Below are positions 9,866-17,976 of a stretch of 64,000 nt of DNA, in pieces; the stretch's first letter is position 1; the number at the start of each line of letters is the position of its first letter. This DNA comes from Neosynechococcus sphagnicola sy1. GTDB taxonomy: Bacteria > Cyanobacteriota > Cyanobacteriia > Neosynechococcales > Neosynechococcaceae. The notes below the pieces were generated by a model that was given only the letters and a program-made list of their open reading frames with translations, had not been told where the DNA came from and did not search any database. Made by a program: the position numbers and the translations under genes. The DNA is taken from assembly GCF_000775285.1 (NCBI RefSeq), contig NZ_JJML01000026.1, positions 56,151-120,150 of the forward strand, written 5' to 3'.

Positions 9866-10378
9866 GTGGGACCCAGAAAGAGCGATCGCAAATGCTGTGG
9901 TGGCTCAAAACAAGACGGGCGATCGCCAACATCAGGAGTTAAGTCGGCGATCGCCCTGTTGGATTCGATCCAGAAAAAAGTGACCTGCTTACAGCAACTT
10001 CAGACCACCCTGCAACTGGAAACCCTTCGTCCCCTGGTGGGTCGATCCGAACAGGTCTGCCAATTGCCGCCCCACCGTGGGGCCTATGATCTGGCACTGG
10101 TGCGAGCCGTGGGTACGGCATCGGTCTGTGCTGAATATGCCCTGCCCCTGTTGCGAGAGCGGGGGGGTGCCATTCTCTATCGGGGAGACAATGGACGGGG
10201 GAAGATACCACTGCCCTAGCCCCTGTTGTCGAGCAACTGGGTGGTCGAATCACCGCCATTGAGGCCGTCGTCACACCCATCAGCCAGAGCAGTCGTCATT
10301 ACCTGAGCCTAGAGAGGCAACGATCCACCCCCGCCGAATTTCCTCGGGCGGTGGGGATTCCAGCGAAATATCCCCTTT
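9866..10378 (+). pseudogene. rsmG: 16S rRNA (guanine527-N7)-methyltransferase RsmG/GidB-like gene, C-terminal two-thirds only; 5' part degenerate
   Basis: The frame from 9866 reads ..AIALLDSIQKKVTCLQQL...YDLALVRAVGTASVCAEYALPLLRERGGAILYRG, a strong RsmG match. The RsmG C-terminus (..ALAPVVEQLGGRITAIEAVVTPISQSSRHYLSLER...AVGIPAKYPL*) continues to 10378 after a 1-nt deletion in a G5 run (10197-10201). I could not find a recognisable SAM motif I or N-terminal region between the thioesterase start (9563) and 9866. That stretch is AT-rich and has stops in every frame. Confidence 0.45.
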
Positions 10379-10407
10379 AGGGAGGATCTGAATTGGTTGC
10401 TGGCTGC

Positions 10408-10644
10408 CCATCTCGTCATTGATACTGCTAAGGTCTAAGTTGAGCCATAATATTAAGTCATGCAATTGACTCTCAAAAACCTGGCCCGATGCTGAGGAGG
10501 TAAGCATTTATCAACGGTAAAATTTGTGTCTAGGGGCGCAACGTTGTCTTCAATACTGGCCTGAGGTTAATACCCTAGAGTTTTCTTCAACACGCTCTTA
10601 AAAAGATATAACTTTAGCACCGCCGCAAAAGACCAGGATCTCTT
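10408..10644 (+). promoter_or_regulatory. conserved leader, copy 1, upstream of radical SAM paralogue 1
   Basis: It shares blocks with 12462..12701 (ATTGATACTGCTAAGGTCT; CATGCARTTGACNCTCAAAA; CTGAGGAG; TTTATCAA). The 3' block of ~85 nt (CTGGCCTGARGTTRATACCYTAGA...TTCAANACGCTNTTAAAAANATATAACTTTARCA) is about 85% identical. It includes a candidate -35 TTCAAC/TTCAAG and -10 TATAAC. Confidence 0.45.
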
Positions 10645-12231
10645 ATGAACGTTTTACTCCTATATCCGCGCTTTCCCAAAAGCTTTTGGTCTTACGAAAA
10701 AATTCTAGAATTGGTCAATCGAAAAGTTCTGTTACCCCCCTTGGGTCTGGTCACGGTCGCTGCCATTCTGCCCCAAGACTGGGACTTTAAGCTGGTTGAT
10801 TGCAATATTCGTGCGGTGACTGATCTGGAATGGCAGTGGGCCGATCTCGTCATTATGTCCGCCATGATTGTCCAGAAAGACGATATTTTAGAGCAGATTC
10901 AGCTGGCCAAGCAATTTAGCAAACCTGTTGCTGTCGGGGGACCTTATCCAACCTCCATGCCGGAAGATATGGAAGCGGCAGGGGTGGATTATCTCATCTT
11001 GGATGAAGGGGAAATTACCCTACCCCTGTTTGTAGAAGCCTGGAATCGCGGCGATAAAAAAGGACGATTCACTGCCAATGGCGAGAAACCGTCTGTTACC
11101 GATACGCCTATCCCCCGCTATGACCTCCTCAGCCTGCGGGACTATGATTCTATGTCGGTGCAGTTTTCCCGTGGCTGTCCTTTCCAGTGTGAGTTTTGCG
11201 ACATTATTGTTCTTTACGGACGCAAGCCCCGCACCAAAACCCCGGAACAACTGCTGGGTGAATTGGACTATCTCTTCCAGTTGGGCTGGCGGGGCGGTGT
11301 GTTTATGGTAGATGACAACTTTATCGGCAATAAGCGCAACGTCAAACTCTTACTCAAGGAGCTAAAAGAATGGCAAAGATCCCATAAATATCCCTTCCGA
11401 TTCGATACGGAAGCATCATTGGATCTGGCCCAGGATCAAGAATTAATTGATCTGATGCTGGAGTGTAATTTTGCCGCCGTCTTTATGGGCATCGAAACGC
11501 CGGATGAAGACAGTTTACAGTTGACGAAAAAGTTCCAAAATACGCGCACACCGCTGTTGGAGTCCATCGATCGGGTGACGGAATCTGGTCTACGTGTGAT
11601 TGCGGGATTTATTATTGGATTTGACGGCGAAAAAGCAGGGGCAGGACAACGTATTGCCGATTTTGCCGAATTGACCGGCATCCCCACAACCACCTTTGCG
11701 ATGCTGCAAGCCTTACCCCATACTGCCCTCTGGCATCGTCTGGAAAAAGAAGGTCGTTTACACGCTAAAGACGGCAATATCAACCAAACAACGCTGATGA
11801 ATTTTGTTCCCACCCGCCCGGTGGAAGAGATTGCCGGCGAGTATGTTGAGGCATTTTGTCAACTCTATGAACCCTCTCATTACCTTGATCGGGTCTATCG
11901 TTACTTTCTCAAATTGGGAGCACCCCGTGTCAAACCGCCATTCAAATGGCCGGAATGGGTTGTGGTTAAAGCCTTACTAATTGTCTGTTGGCGACAAGGC
12001 ATCCTGCGCAAAACTCGTTGGAAATTCTGGCATCATTTGTTGGACATGGTGCGTCGTAATCCCGCCGTTGTCGAACAATATTTGGCTGTATGCGCCCACA
12101 ATGAACACTTTATGGAGTATCGTCAAATTGTCAGACATGAGATTGAAGAGCAGGTTGCCAAGTTTCTAGAAGGGGAAGCACGGCTCAAGCCTGAAATAGC
12201 AAAGATTGCAGAAGTTGTAGCTGTTTCTTGA
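10645..12231 (+). CDS. B12-binding domain-containing radical SAM protein (class B, DUF4070 C-terminal domain), paralogue 1
   Basis: 528 aa. N-terminal cobalamin-binding Rossmann region (LLPPLGLVTVAAILPQDW). Radical SAM core with CxxxCxxC (SRGCPFQCEFCDI). DUF4070-like C-terminus. Confidence 0.85.
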   Translation: MNVLLLYPRFPKSFWSYEKILELVNRKVLLPPLGLVTVAAILPQDWDFKLVDCNIRAVTDLEWQWADLVIMSAMIVQKDDILEQIQLAKQFSKPVAVGGPYPTSMPEDMEAAGVDYLILDEGEITLPLFVEAWNRGDKKGRFTANGEKPSVTDTPIPRYDLLSLRDYDSMSVQFSRGCPFQCEFCDIIVLYGRKPRTKTPEQLLGELDYLFQLGWRGGVFMVDDNFIGNKRNVKLLLKELKEWQRSHKYPFRFDTEASLDLAQDQELIDLMLECNFAAVFMGIETPDEDSLQLTKKFQNTRTPLLESIDRVTESGLRVIAGFIIGFDGEKAGAGQRIADFAELTGIPTTTFAMLQALPHTALWHRLEKEGRLHAKDGNINQTTLMNFVPTRPVEEIAGEYVEAFCQLYEPSHYLDRVYRYFLKLGAPRVKPPFKWPEWVVVKALLIVCWRQGILRKTRWKFWHHLLDMVRRNPAVVEQYLAVCAHNEHFMEYRQIVRHEIEEQVAKFLEGEARLKPEIAKIAEVVAVS

Positions 12232-12461
12232 ATATTCTTGCCTATAGCGGTTCTCAATTACCTGCGGTAGGTTCTGACTTCAGAATCCAGAAGGGTTGGG
12301 TGATTTTATCCCTCACAAGTTATAGCGTTGGTCAGGCAGATGAGGACATGATTCAGACTGTTAAACGCCAATGCTGGGAAACTGCCTGACACACCAACAC
12401 ACAAAAGTTTGTGGCGATGGCTATAAATTACTTATGCCATATCACCTCCAGTATTGATACT

Positions 12462-12701
12462 GCTAAGGTCTGATTAAGGCATTATGATTGAGCCATGCAG
12501 TTGACGCTCAAAAGTTGGGTCGGGTACTGAGGAGCAAGGGTTTATCAAAATAAATTTCACTTTAGTAGGTCGCTGCGCTGAGAAGGGTGATCTATGGGGC
12601 GATGGATCCTCTTCATATTGGCCTGAAGTTGATACCTTAGATTTTTTCAAGACGCTGTTAAAAACATATAACTTTAACATTTTACAAAAGGGCCAGGATT
12701 A
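12462..12701 (+). promoter_or_regulatory. conserved leader, copy 2, upstream of radical SAM paralogue 2
   Basis: See copy 1. The first two conserved blocks are locally rearranged relative to copy 1. The promoter-proximal block is conserved. Confidence 0.45.
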
Positions 12702-14304
12702 ATGATGAACGTTTTACTTCTATATCCGCGCTTTCCTAAAAGCTTTTGGTCTTTTGAAAAGACGCTGGCTTTGCTGGATCGCAAAGCGATGTTACCACCC
12801 TTGGGGTTGGTGACCGTTGCCGCAATTCTGCCCCAAGACTGGGAATTTAAGTTGGTTGATCGCAATGTGGGTGAAGTCACCCCAGGGGAATGGGAATGGG
12901 CTGATCTGGTGATCCTGTCTGCCATGATTGTGCAAAAAGAAGATTTGCTCCAGCAGATCCAGGAAGCGAAACGGCGAGGCAAGCGTGTTGCGGTGGGGGG
13001 ACCCTATGCTACTGCACTCCCCCATGAAGTCATGGAAGTGGGGGCAGACTATTTAATTCTGGATGAAGGGGAAATTACTTTACCTTTGTTTGTTGCCGCG
13101 ATCGCCCAAGGTGAAGCCTCCGGCATCTTCCGATCCAATGGTGAACGCCCTGACGTTACCACCACTCCGGTTCCTCGGTTTGACCTGCTGGAGTTTGATG
13201 CCTATGCCGAAATGTCCGTGCAATTTTCGCGGGGATGTCCCTTCCAGTGTGAATTCTGCGACATTATTGTGCTGTATGGCCGCAAGCCTCGCACCAAGGC
13301 TCCCAATCAACTGCTGCAAGAACTGAGTCGCCTCTACGAACTGGGGTGGCGACGGAGCAGTTTTTATGGTGGATGACAATTTCATCGGCAATAAGCGCAA
13401 CGTCAAACTGTTTCTCAAGGAATTGCAGCCCTGGATGGTGGCGCACCAGTATCCCTTCTCCTTCGCCACAGAAGCCTCAGTCGATCTAGCCAACGATCAG
13501 GAGCTGATGGATCTGATGGTGCTATGTAATTTTGGGGCTGTGTTTCTAGGGATTGAAACTCCCGACGAAGCGAGTTTAACCCTGACCCAAAAGTTTCAAA
13601 ACACGCGGGATTCCCTCAGTGGCGCCGTGAATGCCATTACCCGATCGGGGTTGCGAGTCATGGCAGGTTTCATCATTGGATTTGATGGTGAGAAACCCGG
13701 TGCTGGGGCAAGAATTGTCCAATTTGTCGAACAAACTGCCATTCCCACCGCACTGTTCAGTATGCTGCAAGCACTTCCAGACACAGCTCTCTGGCATCGC
13801 TTAGCAAGAGAAGGACGACTGCGTAGTAAGTCTGCCAATATTAACCAAACGACCTTAATGAACTTTGTGCCCACCCGTCCCCTGGAAGAGATTGCCTCTG
13901 AGTACGTAGAAGCCTTTGACCAGTTGTACGATCCAAAACGGTTCCTCGATCGCGCCTATCGTCATTTTCGGATTCTTGGAGAAGCCACCTATCCGAAGAA
14001 AGGGAAAGGGGCGAAGAAACCCATCAACTGGGTGACGATCCGGGCGTTACTAACGATCTGCTGGCGTCAGGGTGTCTTGCGCAAAACCCGGTGGCAATTC
14101 TGGTTCAATCTCTGGAGAATGGGGCGCTACAATCCTGGTGGCATCAGTAGCTATCTAGCTGTCTGTGCCCAAATTGAACATTTCTTGGAATATCGCCAAA
14201 TTGTCAGACGTGAGATTGAAGAGCAGGTTGCCCAGTTTCTAGCGGCAGAAGCGCTGACCAAACCGTTAGTCGCAGCAGTTGCAGAGGTCGCAGCTGTTTC
14301 TTGA
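12702..14304 (+). CDS. B12-binding radical SAM protein (DUF4070), paralogue 2; split by a 1-nt insertion in a T5 run (13361-13365)
   Basis: ORFs 12702..13376 and 13366..14304 together align end to end with paralogue 1 at about 70% aa identity. Reading the T5 run as T4 gives ...LGWRRSSFMVDDNFIGN.., colinear with paralogue 1 (LGWRGGVFMVDDNFIGN). Confidence 0.8.
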
Positions 14305-14724
14305 AATCTGAGCACTGGCGTGGGTGACAGGGCTGATGCAAGGGGCATGGAACAGATAGATGCTTGAGGTGTTCACTAGTTCTGCTGGATTGATCAGAGA
14401 TCGCCTTCAGGTGACTTCAAACAAGCAAGGCGCAGCCAATATGGTTGGGTTCAGAAGTGTTGAAGGTTAGCTTCAAGCTCAGAAATTGGGTTGCTTTTGT
14501 AGATCATGTATTTCACTTGAGGTGCCAATCAACCCAGTTAATGCCTCTATTCTCAATAAATAGGGCTTTAAAAGCCCTCCAAAGTCCAAATTGTAAAGTT
14601 TTGCCATCAAGATTCAACACTTCTGGGTTGCGTTGTATTCACGCTTTGCGACATTGACAAGATTCAACTCCGGCTGTGGCAGAATCTAGAGTAAGAGAAG
14701 CTTTATCCTGACTCAGCATTCCCC

Positions 14725-17700
14725 ATGATTGCAACTGCGACGATCCCAACCCTATCAAGTCAGTACGACCCTGCGATCGCCGAAGCGAAGTGGCAGCAAT
14801 TTTGGGAAGACCATCAAGTTTTCAAAGCGGATCCAAATCATCCCGGCGAGCCTTACTGTGTCGTGATTCCGCCCCCAAATGTCACCGGCAGTCTACACAT
14901 GGGGCATGCCTTTGAGAGCGCCCTGATCGATACTCTTGTCCGCTATCACCGCATGATTGGGCGGAATACGCTGTGGTTACCGGGAACTGACCACGCCAGT
15001 ATTGCGGTGAGCACAATTCTAGATAGAGAGTTACAAGCCCAGGGGAAGAGCCGTTCTGACGTGGGTCGCGAAGCGTATCTGAAACGTGCCTGGGAATGGA
15101 AATTAGAATCGGGTGGGACGATTGTCAATCAGTTGCGGCGGTTAGGGGTTTCTGTGGACTGGTCGCGGGAACGGTTCACCCTGGATGAGGGTTTATCAGC
15201 AGCCGTCATCGAAGCCTTCGTGCAGATGCATGAACAGGAGTTGATCTATCGGGGTGAGTATCTGGTTAACTGGTGCCCTGCGAGTCAGTCTGCGGTCTCT
15301 GATCTAGAAGTAGACAATCAAGAAGTCAACGGTCACCTCTGGCACTTTCGTTATCCCTTAACCGATGGCACGGGGTTTGTGGAAGTTGCCACCACCCGCC
15401 CAGAGACCATGCTGGGGGATACTGCCGTGGCGGTCAATCCAGGGGACGATCGCTACCAAGGAATCATTGGCAAAATGGTGCGACTGCCGATCGTGGATCG
15501 CGAGATTCCTATTATTGCCGATGAATACGTGGACTCGACCTTTGGAACTGGTTGTGTCAAGGTCACCCCTGCCCACGATCCCAATGACTTTGAAATGGGG
15601 AAGCGGCATCAGCTGCCCTTCATCAACATCATGAACAAAGATGGCTCCCTGAACGAGCATGCGGGGGAATTTCAGGGACAGGATCGCTTTCTAGCCCGCA
15701 AGCAGGTGGTCGCAAAGTTAAAGGCATTGGATTGTCTGGTCAAAGTCGAAGACTACAAGCACACAGTGCCCTATAGCGATCGCGGCAAGGTGCCAGTGGA
15801 ACCGCTGCTCTCAACCCAGTGGTTTGTCAAAATTGAACCCCTCGCCCAGCAAGCCCTGATCGCTCTTGATCAGCATCAATCTCCTGCCTTTGTACCTGAA
15901 CGGTGGACTAAGGTGTATCGAGATTGGTTGGTGAACTTGAAGGACTGGTGCATTTCCCGCCAACTGTGGTGGGGACACCAAATTCCCGCCTGGTATGTGG
16001 TCAGCCTCACCGAGGGCAAGATTACCGATCAAACCCACTTTTTTGTTGCCCGCACCGAGGCGGAAGCCCGACAGCAGGCCGAAGAGTTATTTGGCCCCGA
16101 TGTACAGTTGATGCAAGATCCCGATGTCCTCGATACCTGGTTTTCATCGGGACTCTGGCCTTTCTCTACCTTAGGCTGGCCCCAGCAAACAGCAGATTTG
16201 AGCCGTTACTATCCCACAACAACACTGGTAACGGGCTTCGATATCATCTTCTTCTGGGTGGCTCGGATGACGATGATGGCAGGACACTTCACGGGAGCAA
16301 TGCCCTTCCAGACGGTCTACATTCATGGACTGGTGCGGGATGAGAACAACAAGAAGATGTCCAAGTCAGCGAATAATGGCATTGATCCACTCTTGCTGAT
16401 GAACAAGTACGGCACCGATGCCCTGCGCTACACCTTAATTCGAGAGGTAGCTGGTGCTGGCCAGGATATCCGCATGGAATATAACCGCAAAACCGATGAA
16501 TCGGCCTCCGTGGAAGCGGCCCGTAACTTCACCAATAAGCTGTGGAATGCCTCCCGTTTTGTGATGCTGAACTTGGATGGTCAAACCCCAGAACAGTTGA
16601 CACTGAAGGATCTCAACAGTTTAGAAATGAGCGATCGCTGGATCCTGTCCCGGTATTACCAAACCGTGGAGCAAACCCGCAATTACCTGGATCATTATGG
16701 TCTCGGGGAAGCCGCCAAAGGACTCTATGAATTCATCTGGGGGGACTTTTGTGACTGGTACATTGAGTTAGTGAAGTCGCGGTTACAGGGGGATGACCCG
16801 ATTTCCCGCCGCACCGCCCAGCAAACCTTAGCCTTGGTGCTGGAAGGAATTCTCAAGCTGCTGCACCCGTTGATGCCCCACATTACGGAAGAAATCTGGC
16901 AAACCCTGACCCAGACAACGGTTCATGAAGAGGGGAATGGGAAGTCAGGGATTATAACCCTGGCGTTGCAACCCTACCCTGAGGCTGACCCCACCCTGAT
17001 TAACCCTGACTTAGAACAACAGTTTGAACTGTTGATCAATACGATTCGCACGATTCGCAATCTCCGGGCGGAGTCTGATATCAAGCCCAGTGTTAAGGTG
17101 CAAACCACCCTGCAAAGCGAAAGCCCACGGGAGCGGCAGATCCTGACGGCAGGAGCTACCTACATTCAAGACTTAGCCAAGGTGGACACCCTAGACATTG
17201 TTGAACCCCCTGCTCAGGTTCTGCCACCGCTTGATCCAGGAGTTGGGGATAGCAGCCCCCGTGCCCCCGTGCCCCCCATCATTGCTGAACCCGTTGCCGA
17301 TCGTAGAGTCGCGGCTCCAGCCCCCCAAGATCACCGTCCGATCTTGCTGATGGGTCTGGTGGTGGTTGCCCTGGTAGTGCTGAAAATGATTCAGTCTTTC
17401 TTGGCGGCTCTGAATACGATGCCCCTCTTGCCGGGGTGTTTTCAACTGGTGGGTCTAGTCTATACCTTGTGGTTCCTAGCCCGTTACGTGGTGCTGGCGA
17501 AATCCCGTCAGGAATTCTCCCAGCTGGTTCAAACCCAAATGGAACCGATTCTGGGACAGCCTCTGCCGGAGGCGATGTTAAAGCTGCGTTCCAGCCTGCA
17601 ACCACCCGTGGCGCTGCCGCTGTCACCCTCTCCGGAGATGGTTCTGAGGGGAGCACAACTCGGGAATCTAGAGAGAGTAGAAATCTTAGAACCTGTAATT

Positions 17701-17976
17701 GCTCCCCAGAAAATTCAAATGGCCGCCGGGGTGGTCGGCACCGTACAAGTATTAATTCCCCTCGCAGGGGTGGTTGATGTTGCGGCCTTGCGAGGGAAAT
17801 TACAAAAAGACCTGAGTAAGGTGGAGGCCGAGATCGCTTCGCTGTCTACTCGGTTGAGTCAACCTAACTTTGTCGATAAGGCCCGCGTTGAAGTTGTGCA
17901 GGGAGCCAAAGATAACCTAACAGAAGCAGAGAAACAGGCCAAAATCTTGCGCGATCGCCTATCAGGGTTAACTTAA
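14725..17976 (+). CDS. valS: valine--tRNA ligase with appended CAAD membrane-anchor insertion
   Basis: 1083 aa. Class I HIGH ([12 protein letters not shown]) and KMSKS motifs. Editing and anticodon-binding domains. C-terminal coiled coil. A ~110-aa insertion with two hydrophobic helices lies before the coiled coil. Confidence 0.95.
17209..17700 (+). other. CAAD-like insertion within valS: two predicted TM helices
   Basis: Residues ~830-990 of ValRS: a Pro-rich linker, then [24 protein letters not shown] and [25 protein letters not shown], followed by the normal C-terminal coiled coil. Canonical ValRS has no such insertion. Confidence 0.6.

Follow-up and report, generated by a model that had tools for sequence, protein, structure and literature searches.

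Two paralogous genes that stand head to tail in Neosynechococcus sphagnicola sy1 each follow an upstream region, and these two regions resemble each other more closely than do the cores of the genes behind them. This raises the question of whether the upstream DNA is a regulatory element held in place by purifying selection, as an earlier note on this sequence had proposed, or whether the likeness has another origin. We addressed it in a window of 64 kb, the whole stretch of DNA analysed, using domain and RNA family searches, comparison with orthologous loci from other cyanobacteria and alignment of the two copies with each other.

Two old cobalamin-dependent radical SAM paralogues

The locus contains two genes with the B12-binding/Radical_SAM/DUF4070 combination, at 10645-12231 and 12705-14304, and is laid out as follows.

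10418..10644, plus strand: upstream region, copy 1, beginning 38 nt past the stop codon of an rsmG remnant
10645..12231, plus strand: gene 1, intact, 528 aa, clade-A 'HpnP-like' B12-binding radical SAM/DUF4070 protein
12232..12452, plus strand: spacer of 221 nt from the stop of gene 1 to the duplicated region; unique, with no counterpart upstream of copy 1
12453..12704, plus strand: upstream region, copy 2, colinear with copy 1, with a 28-nt insertion at 12581-12608
12705..14304, plus strand: gene 2, clade-B paralogue, its frame broken by one inserted base
13360..13360, plus strand: inserted G, a single base in a non-homopolymer context (A-G-T)

The gene 1 product is a 100% match to an N. sphagnicola sy1 protein. 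Both proteins matched the N-terminal B12-binding domain PF02310 (51.3 and 45.3 bits, cut-off 32.1) and the radical SAM core PF04055, and in both the CxxxCxxC motif reads CPFQCEFC. Identity between them is 68.9% at the protein and 67% at the nucleotide level. By their domains, genes 1 and 2 classify as class B (cobalamin-dependent) radical SAM/DUF4070 enzymes, and the earlier description of a tandem pair about 70% identical holds. That description had, however, treated gene 2 as a whole gene and missed a 1-nt insertion: gene 2 is not one intact reading frame but lies in two pieces (12702-13376 and 13366-14304), and deletion of G13360 brings back GWRRSIFMVDDNF, a motif found in 120/120 of the best clade-B homologues. 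An extra base in the T5 run of gene 2 was also considered and was ruled out by the comparison with 120 orthologues, which pointed to G13360. The additional base could be genuine, in which case it would be an inactivating mutation of very recent date, or it could stem from an error in the assembly; the sequencing technology behind the sy1 assembly did not emerge from a literature search. Gene 2 probably starts at the ATG at 12705, which aligns with the start of gene 1 and follows the common CCAGGAT at the same distance of 5 nt.

The same three domains (B12-binding, radical SAM with CxxxCxxC, and DUF4070) make up the hopanoid C-2 methylase HpnP, and the earlier note had left open whether either gene encodes it. 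The combination is not specific to HpnP, as HpnP-like proteins have it too, and for N. sphagnicola sy1 another protein, KGF73531, has been published as HpnP (Hoshino et al. 2023, PMC10697835, supplement). KGF73531 aligns with gene 1 end to end at 35% identity (E = 2e-106), and in our neighbour-joining tree genes 1 and 2 fall into clades of their own with HpnP as the outgroup. On these sequence comparisons, genes 1 and 2 are not HpnP, and their candidacy is excluded. Scores for HpnR, BchE and other NCBIfam equivalogs stayed below cut-off (best 77-93 bits vs 251-775). Both genes instead fit the 'HpnP-like' uncharacterised protein of many cyanobacteria (PMC10697835), and 'HpnP-like' proteins remain unassigned (bioRxiv 10.1101/2025.07.29.667474), in line with the earlier view of the pair as DUF4070 class-B enzymes with no assigned substrate. 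From the 35% identity to HpnP and the common three-domain architecture alone, a C-methylase activity that depends on B12 and SAM and is directed at a non-hopanoid substrate is probable for both enzymes.

The two genes have long been separate. Between them, four-fold sites are 34% identical (55/163), which amounts to saturation, and third codon positions are 46% identical. In the tree, built by neighbour joining on Kimura distances with 100 bootstraps and with the organism's HpnP as root, clade B was monophyletic in 92/100 replicates and the two local genes were sisters in 0/100. Orthologues of gene 2 in Nostocales, Oculatella and others are 85-90% identical to it, well above the 69% of its neighbour gene 1, and the best orthologue of gene 1 in the collections is 84% identical. 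By this phylogeny, genes 1 and 2 are old paralogues belonging to clades A and B, both of which are found in other cyanobacteria.

The duplicated upstream region and its distribution

Copies 1 and 2 of the upstream region are homologous, with 71-76% identity over ~222 ungapped plus 31-35 gap columns in global alignments whose score lies 17-19 sd above that of 300 shuffles (shuffle identity 42-52%). Strict gap penalties were used for these alignments; cheap gap extension lifted controls and shuffles to 68-78% identity. Conservation is highest in a promoter-proximal block, with 82% identity over 72 columns and 85% over 60 nt by blastn. The common blocks and the well-conserved proximal block that the earlier note had seen are thus real, and two of its details needed correction: the homology starts at 10418 and not at 10408, and the blocks, described as shuffled modular operators, are strictly colinear, the 28-nt insertion in the second leader being the sole large difference. 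The upstream region has a GC content of 0.40-0.41, compared with 0.52 for the window. Three candidate elements occur in both copies.

10460..10495, plus strand: upstream ORF of 11 codons, MQLTLKNLARC*; its counterpart at 12495-12530 reads MQLTLKSWVGY*, with the same length and the same stop
10607..10614, plus strand, also 12667-12674: putative -10-like element TATAAC/TAACTT inside the best-conserved block, uncalled by a consensus scan
10633..10639, plus strand, also 12693-12699: Shine-Dalgarno-like CCAGGAT, common to both copies, 5 nt before the ATG

The consensus scan called no plus-strand sigma-70 promoter in either leader. Its one call was on the minus strand, TTGAGA-18-TATTAT at 10476-10447, and overall, sites were as frequent as in shuffled sequence. 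Inspection by eye gave no convincing NtcA, Fur/Zur, LexA, RpaB (HLR1), Pho-box, NdhR or CIRCE-like sites. TTGATA-like hexamers recur in the leaders; these were chosen post hoc.

Within the 64 kb window, neither the 19-mer ATTGATACTGCTAAGGTCT nor any other block occurs outside the two leaders, and no further leader copies were detected. The two leaders were compared with 85 fetched loci by blastn (word size 7) and as an nhmmer profile, and both searches found the leader absent at 86 orthologous genes (80 of clade A and 6 of clade B, at 82 loci). Part of what the earlier note had itself named as evidence against its reading was therefore found, namely a lack of conservation of the leader blocks at orthologous loci, and the leader is lineage-specific. 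In metagenomes, the 19-mer gave three chance matches, none of which extended beyond 19-24 nt. Where tandem pairs occur in other genomes, the genes are separated by a spacer of 46-83 nt or by another ORF.

Mosaic structure of gene 1 and probable partial homogenisation

The homology of the leaders runs on into a 96%-identical start of the coding sequence, and a second stretch of high identity lies near the other end of the genes.

10645..10692, plus strand, counterpart 12705-12752: 5' coding part of the putatively homogenised tract, 46/48 nt (96%) and 14/16 codons identical
12118..12168, plus strand, counterpart 14191-14241: 3' high-identity block, 48/51 nt (94%) identical

Local nucleotide identity between genes 1 and 2 reaches 0.88 (nt 1-60) and 0.90 (nt 1501-1560), compared with 0.60-0.77 in the same windows for A-B pairs of four other genomes. 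Among 33 residues that distinguish the clades, 30 are in the A state in gene 1 and only two in the B state, at positions 13 and 504, which are the first and the last of the diagnostic sites (chance 1 in 528). S13 thus places a clade-B state in the 5' tract of a clade-A gene, and the 3' block includes V504, likewise of clade-B state, and encodes the common derived motif EIEEQVA.FL. Both FPKS and EIEEQVA.FL deviate from the clade-A norm. Shared derived residues are located in the C-terminal tail, in which identity is 65% within the N. sphagnicola genome and 34% between genomes. The pattern has the marks of a gene-conversion mosaic, with a phylogenetic signal that switches along the gene and with identity that is raised at synonymous sites as well.

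We therefore consider it probable that the two genes are old paralogues between which the upstream region and the gene ends were later copied, by gene conversion or as a segmental copy. The starting point would have been a tandem of clade-A and clade-B paralogues of the cyanobacteria-wide 'HpnP-like' cobalamin-dependent radical SAM family. In the Neosynechococcus lineage the two would then have been partly homogenised, through gene conversion or through a segmental copy by which gene 1 became chimeric. One tract would comprise the ~230-bp upstream region and the first ~16 codons, and the other roughly the last 25-40 codons. Because the ends of gene 1 are both of clade-B character, the diagnostic residues identify gene 2 or a clade-B gene as the donor. 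The upstream tract boundary (10418 / 12453) has no flanking homology, so that a simple conversion would need an illegitimate junction. Each gene would now stand behind its own copy of a promoter and 5'UTR, consisting of TATAAC/TAACTT, then CCAGGAT, then the ATG, and with these predicted elements duplicated the two genes are probably transcribed separately and regulated alike.

Partial homogenisation would also account for the observation from which we set out. The cores of the coding sequences are ancient, the leader tract, which extends into the first 16 codons, is younger, and a comparison of leader with coding sequence thus mixes two ages. The greater likeness of the leader, compared with the coding cores, would reflect its lower age and not an unusual constraint, and the step from better conservation to purifying selection on a common cis element, which the earlier note had taken, lacks support. 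The leader has diverged (~25-29% mismatches, plus indels) at least as much as the synonymous sites of the coding tracts homogenised with it (~3 changes in ~25 synonymous sites, a tiny sample), a comparison over some 25 sites that faintly suggests neutral drift of the leader. Concerted evolution or gene conversion between paralogues is familiar from tufA/tufB in enterobacteria and from the cyanobacterial psbA copies. Such cases share with this locus high-identity tracts that take in synonymous sites and non-coding flanks within diverged paralogues, and a phylogenetic signal that is discordant along the gene. Unlike tufA/tufB and psbA, the paralogues here are very old and were homogenised only in short terminal tracts and the promoter region; since these tracts have drifted and gained indels, conversion is not ongoing.

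Other readings of the upstream region

Selection could still have acted on parts of the duplicated DNA. The blocks may be protein-binding operator or promoter modules under purifying selection, used by one lineage-specific regulator for both paralogues, a reading that we regard as unlikely but as the most serious competitor, and one that overlaps in part with the preferred explanation, as homogenisation would then merely have made the raw material. Between blocks identical at 19/19 and 8/8 positions lie stretches that align poorly, a small dyad survives the two differences between TCTTAAAAAGA and TGTTAAAAACA, TTGATAC/TTATCAA-type hexamers are recurrent, and matches in the leader cluster mildly (permutation p = 0.02-0.04; with the other alignment 0.008-0.23). 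This mild clustering, which includes the perfect 19-mer, means that some selection on sub-elements since the copying is possible. However, the heterogeneity is weak and alignment-dependent (run lengths gave p = 0.23), the choice of motifs was made with the data in view, none could be matched to a known operator of cyanobacteria, and other copies are lacking both in the 64 kb and at orthologous loci. A more specific version, in which the 19-mer at 10418, CATGCARTTGACNCTCAAAA, CTGAGGAG, TTTATCAA and the 60-70-nt proximal block are sites or a short leader element of a new lineage-specific regulator, appears to us more doubtful still. If it were true, this regulator would co-control both HpnP-like paralogues, perhaps with cobalamin, SAM or the enzyme product as the signal, and the homogenisation would have been fixed since co-regulation was advantageous. 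The 11-codon upstream ORF (MQLTLK...) in each leader might in turn be a regulatory leader peptide or a substrate peptide, given that length, start and stop agree between the copies and that codons 1-6 differ at two sites only, both of them synonymous. Yet two of two changes at third positions are expected by chance in about 1 of 9 cases, and the copies disagree at every one of the last five codons. The ORF lacks a Shine-Dalgarno sequence in front of it, falls short of a typical RiPP precursor at 11 aa, and was not seen at other loci; a role as either kind of peptide is very improbable and the likeness probably coincidental.

Cobalamin riboswitches are the usual cis-regulators of B12-related genes and occupy a 5' leader of about this length, and the enzymes encoded here are cofactor-dependent. 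Nevertheless, we give very little credence to a structured cis-regulatory RNA, that is, a novel riboswitch or attenuator sensing B12, SAM or a pathway metabolite. Rfam returned nothing relevant for the whole window at the gathering score and one irrelevant match only for 10200-14700 at E<=10; the cobalamin riboswitch (RF00174) was absent at either threshold, as the earlier note had stated. Some hairpin is present in both leaders just upstream of the proximal block, but the two are unlike in sequence and lack U-tracts, folding energies show no excess over shuffled controls (MFE z-scores +0.6 and -0.1), and the consensus fold of -13.9 kcal/mol over 271 columns, derived from two sequences only, contains 2 trivial compensatory pairs, in short stems of 4-6 bp. 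From the best -10-like element to the ATG it is only ~30 nt, and transcription from there would leave out most of the 'leader'. The region is absent from all orthologous loci, a known RNA directly upstream of an orthologue was found at 0/14 loci, and the one cobalamin riboswitch match near orthologues lies ~2 kb away on the opposite strand (locus L002). The novel leader RNA suggested earlier as a regulator is hence unsupported. Equally improbable is a mobile or repeated element inserted independently before each gene: the region is AT-richer than its surroundings and its upstream boundaries are sharp, but only two copies exist, they are alike in orientation and in register with the start codon, their homology enters the coding sequence, terminal repeats are missing, and the three metagenome matches to the 19-mer do not extend beyond 19-24 nt.

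Partial homogenisation of old paralogues remains our preferred reading, and the locus is most likely a product of ordinary genome evolution and not a preserved special regulatory RNA. It carries a caution: higher similarity of non-coding than of coding DNA between paralogues is not by itself a sign of purifying selection on a regulatory element, as partial gene conversion can leave flanks and gene ends younger than the body of the gene. It is settled that neither gene is this organism's hopanoid 2-methylase and that both belong to a cyanobacteria-wide 'HpnP-like' clade pair. Finally, the mosaic suggests that both enzymes were placed under the same type of promoter, which hints at related roles.

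The gene pair, its neighbours and the encoded enzymes

The genes under study represent two old cyanobacterial paralogue clades, A (gene 1) and B (gene 2), and stand beside a further disrupted gene:

10645-12231, + strand: gene 1, 528 aa, with B12-binding, Radical_SAM and DUF4070 Pfam domains
12702-13376 plus 13366-14304, + strand: gene 2, two ORFs with the same three Pfam domains
9866-10380: fragment of rsmG, the upstream neighbour, matching GidB profile positions 74-151 of 184

An earlier note on this DNA had described two class-B radical SAM genes lying head to tail and about 70% identical, and this description holds: the domains were found, both proteins carry the CPFQCEFC cluster motif, and identity is 68.9% for protein and 67% for coding DNA. 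The gene 1 product matches a protein of N. sphagnicola sy1 at 100% identity, which places the window in this strain. Gene 2 probably starts at ATG 12705, which aligns with the gene 1 start and, in both copies, has a common CCAGGAT 5 nt away. Its frame is broken, giving two ORFs instead of one intact ORF. Without G13360 the motif GWRRSIFMVDDNF is regained, which 120/120 best clade-B homologues have in exactly this form; this identifies the lesion as one extra nucleotide in a stretch that is not a homopolymer, either a true, very recent mutation or pseudogenisation, or a local assembly error. All other long ORFs of the window are intact except rsmG, whose remnant changes frame at least once near 10190-10215 and in which the N-terminal SAM-binding part was not recognisable; the two disrupted genes, rsmG and gene 2, lie within 4.5 kb. 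Downstream, the valyl-tRNA synthetase (14725-17976) has at residues 869-944 a CAAD membrane-anchor domain (PF14159), a known cyanobacterial peculiarity.

The proteins reached none of the curated NCBIfam equivalogs (top matches 77-93 bits against cut-offs of 251-775), and among solved structures even the closest are remote (AprD4, E = 4e-9). HpnP, left open as a candidate in the earlier note, is ruled out, since the published HpnP of N. sphagnicola sy1 is another protein, KGF73531 (Hoshino et al. 2023, PMC10697835), to which gene 1 is only 35% identical; the squalene-hopene cyclase of this strain is KGF72746 (same reference). Genes 1 and 2 fit the description of the additional uncharacterised HpnP-like protein of many cyanobacteria (Hoshino et al. 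2023, PMC10697835), a group still without assigned function according to a 2026 preprint (bioRxiv 10.1101/2025.07.29.667474). By analogy with HpnP, their predicted activity would be cobalamin/SAM-dependent C-methylation of a non-hopanoid substrate. At 28-34 of 80 clade-A loci, hemE (uroporphyrinogen decarboxylase), an SDR/epimerase-like gene and the radical SAM gene follow one another on one strand, an arrangement occurring mainly in Nostocales and Microcoleaceae (fetched loci L023-L080, e.g. L029 1238-5539). This neighbourhood may point to tetrapyrrole metabolism, or may be inherited synteny only.

Age of the gene pair and mosaic structure of gene 1

Genes 1 and 2 are 34% identical at four-fold degenerate sites (55/163) and 46% at third codon positions. 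Silent sites are thus saturated. The best gene 1 orthologues (70-84% identical) come from many cyanobacterial orders and gene 2 orthologues at 85-90% from Nostocales, Oculatella, Geitlerinema and others, and both types occur in tandem, with the same clade-specific signatures, in four other genomes (two Pseudanabaena, Pantanalinema and a Nostocales MAG). With the organism's own HpnP as root, an NJ tree showed clade B as monophyletic in 92/100 bootstraps and the two Neosynechococcus genes as sisters in 0/100. On these data the coding duplication is ancient and older than the split of the cyanobacterial lineages sampled.

In 60-nt windows, identity between the two genes rises to 0.88 (nt 1-60) and 0.90 (nt 1501-1560), where the A and B copies of the other four tandem-pair genomes reach 0.60-0.77; against their own orthologues in these windows, gene 1 scores 0.77 and 0.65 and gene 2 scores 0.79 and 0.65. 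At 30 of 33 clade-diagnostic residues gene 1 agrees with clade A, and at exactly two with clade B, positions 13 (S; T in 76/80 fetched clade-A orthologues) and 504 (V), which are the first and last diagnostic positions (chance 1 in 528). The C-terminal tails share residues rare in both clades, with 65% identity within this genome versus 34% between genomes, and the EIEEQVA.FL motif was not found elsewhere in clade A or B. High-identity ends, B-state terminal residues and common tail residues indicate that gene 1 is a mosaic, a clade-A core with clade-B-like termini. The common upstream region is contiguous with its 5' tract.

Within-genome A/B tails are also somewhat alike in the tandem pairs of two other loci, L019 and L045 (42-44% versus a 34% background; LDLAS/LDLAS and EEKAEAVV/EERAEVLV), which points to weak homogenisation of 3' ends as a recurrent process in this family.

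The common upstream region

10418-10644: leader copy 1, before gene 1
12453-12704: leader copy 2, before gene 2
10607-10614 and 12667-12674, + strand: best -10-like element (TATAAC/TAACTT), ~30 nt before the ATG

The leader copies are clearly homologous, with 71-76% identity over ~222 ungapped columns using sensible gap penalties and an alignment score 17-19 sd above shuffles (shuffle identity 42-52%). All blocks reported in the earlier note were found, and its promoter-proximal block is indeed better conserved than coding DNA (82-85% versus 67%). The blocks are not locally shuffled as had been thought; they are colinear, and the one larger change in layout is a stretch of 28 nt inserted into copy 2 (12581-12608). 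The rest of the 64 kb window contained no further copies.

There is no evidence for the novel regulatory RNA that had been considered: no Rfam family reached its gathering score, the MFE z-scores are +0.6 and -0.1, and the consensus fold reaches only -13.9 kcal/mol over 271 columns. The earlier statement that a cobalamin riboswitch is lacking agrees with these searches, which at E<=10 gave only one irrelevant weak match, inside the CDS. None of 14 loci had a known RNA directly upstream of the orthologue. Synechococcus sp. Tobar12-5m-g has a cobalamin riboswitch (L002 1855-2045, minus strand) ~2 kb upstream of its clade-A gene, on the opposite strand and hence serving another gene. In an uncultured cyanobacterium (L012 75-258), two tandem copies of NsiR1, a nitrogen stress-induced sRNA, lie ~1.4 kb ahead of the clade-A gene.

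A sigma-70 consensus scan called no plus-strand promoter in the leaders. Should the -10-like element act as the promoter, the 'leader' would be mostly upstream DNA, not transcript. Just upstream of it, 10596-10606 (TCTTAAAAAGA, copy 1) and 12656-12666 (TGTTAAAAACA, copy 2) differ at two positions that mirror each other, and retain a 4-bp dyad. The top sigma-70-like match of the region (10476-10447, minus strand, TTGAGA-18-TATTAT, 10/12) is oriented away from gene 1, and copy 2 has a similar TTGAGC...CATAAT at the equivalent location; the match is possibly a divergent or antisense promoter. An 11-codon uORF (MQLTLK...) common to both leaders, with its last five codons all different, is probably a coincidence.

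Homogenisation versus selection

Were the leaders as old as the gene duplication, 71-76% identity with order kept would need very strong constraint. Conservation was looked for at 86 orthologous genes, 80 of clade A on fetched loci and six of clade B (the four tandem copies and two loci besides), and blastn and an nhmmer profile detected the leader at none of them; in tandem pairs elsewhere the second gene follows 46-83 nt after the first, or after another ORF in L045. The homology also runs on into the coding sequence, where two of the first 48 nt differ and 14/16 codons are identical, compared with only 49% of same-amino-acid codons over the whole gene; close to the 3' end, a block of 51 nt has three differences. 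The leader thus appears to be younger than the genes.

The earlier note had taken a leader better conserved than the coding sequence as a sign of purifying selection. This argument fails if the leader belongs to a younger tract: its divergence (~25-29% mismatches plus indels) is not below that at synonymous sites in the coding tracts homogenised along with it (~3 changes in roughly 25 such sites by codon alignment count), so that its excess similarity over the cores needs no special selection. Matches within the leader cluster mildly (one permutation test gave p = 0.02-0.04, another 0.008-0.23), and some constraint on sub-elements is possible, namely the promoter, the SD-like CCAGGAT and candidate operators. 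Partial homogenisation of the tandem paralogues is the simplest reading, either by gene conversion from gene 2 to gene 1, or by duplication of a leader plus clade-B unit, the core of one copy later being swapped for clade-A sequence. By either route, the event would have occurred after the A/B split, yet long enough ago for substantial drift. Collectively, the feature is real and its explanation ordinary, namely tandem paralogues of ancient origin that evolved partly in concert, the promoter region included; the residual novelty lies in possible lineage-specific operator sites and in the role of a conserved enzyme family.
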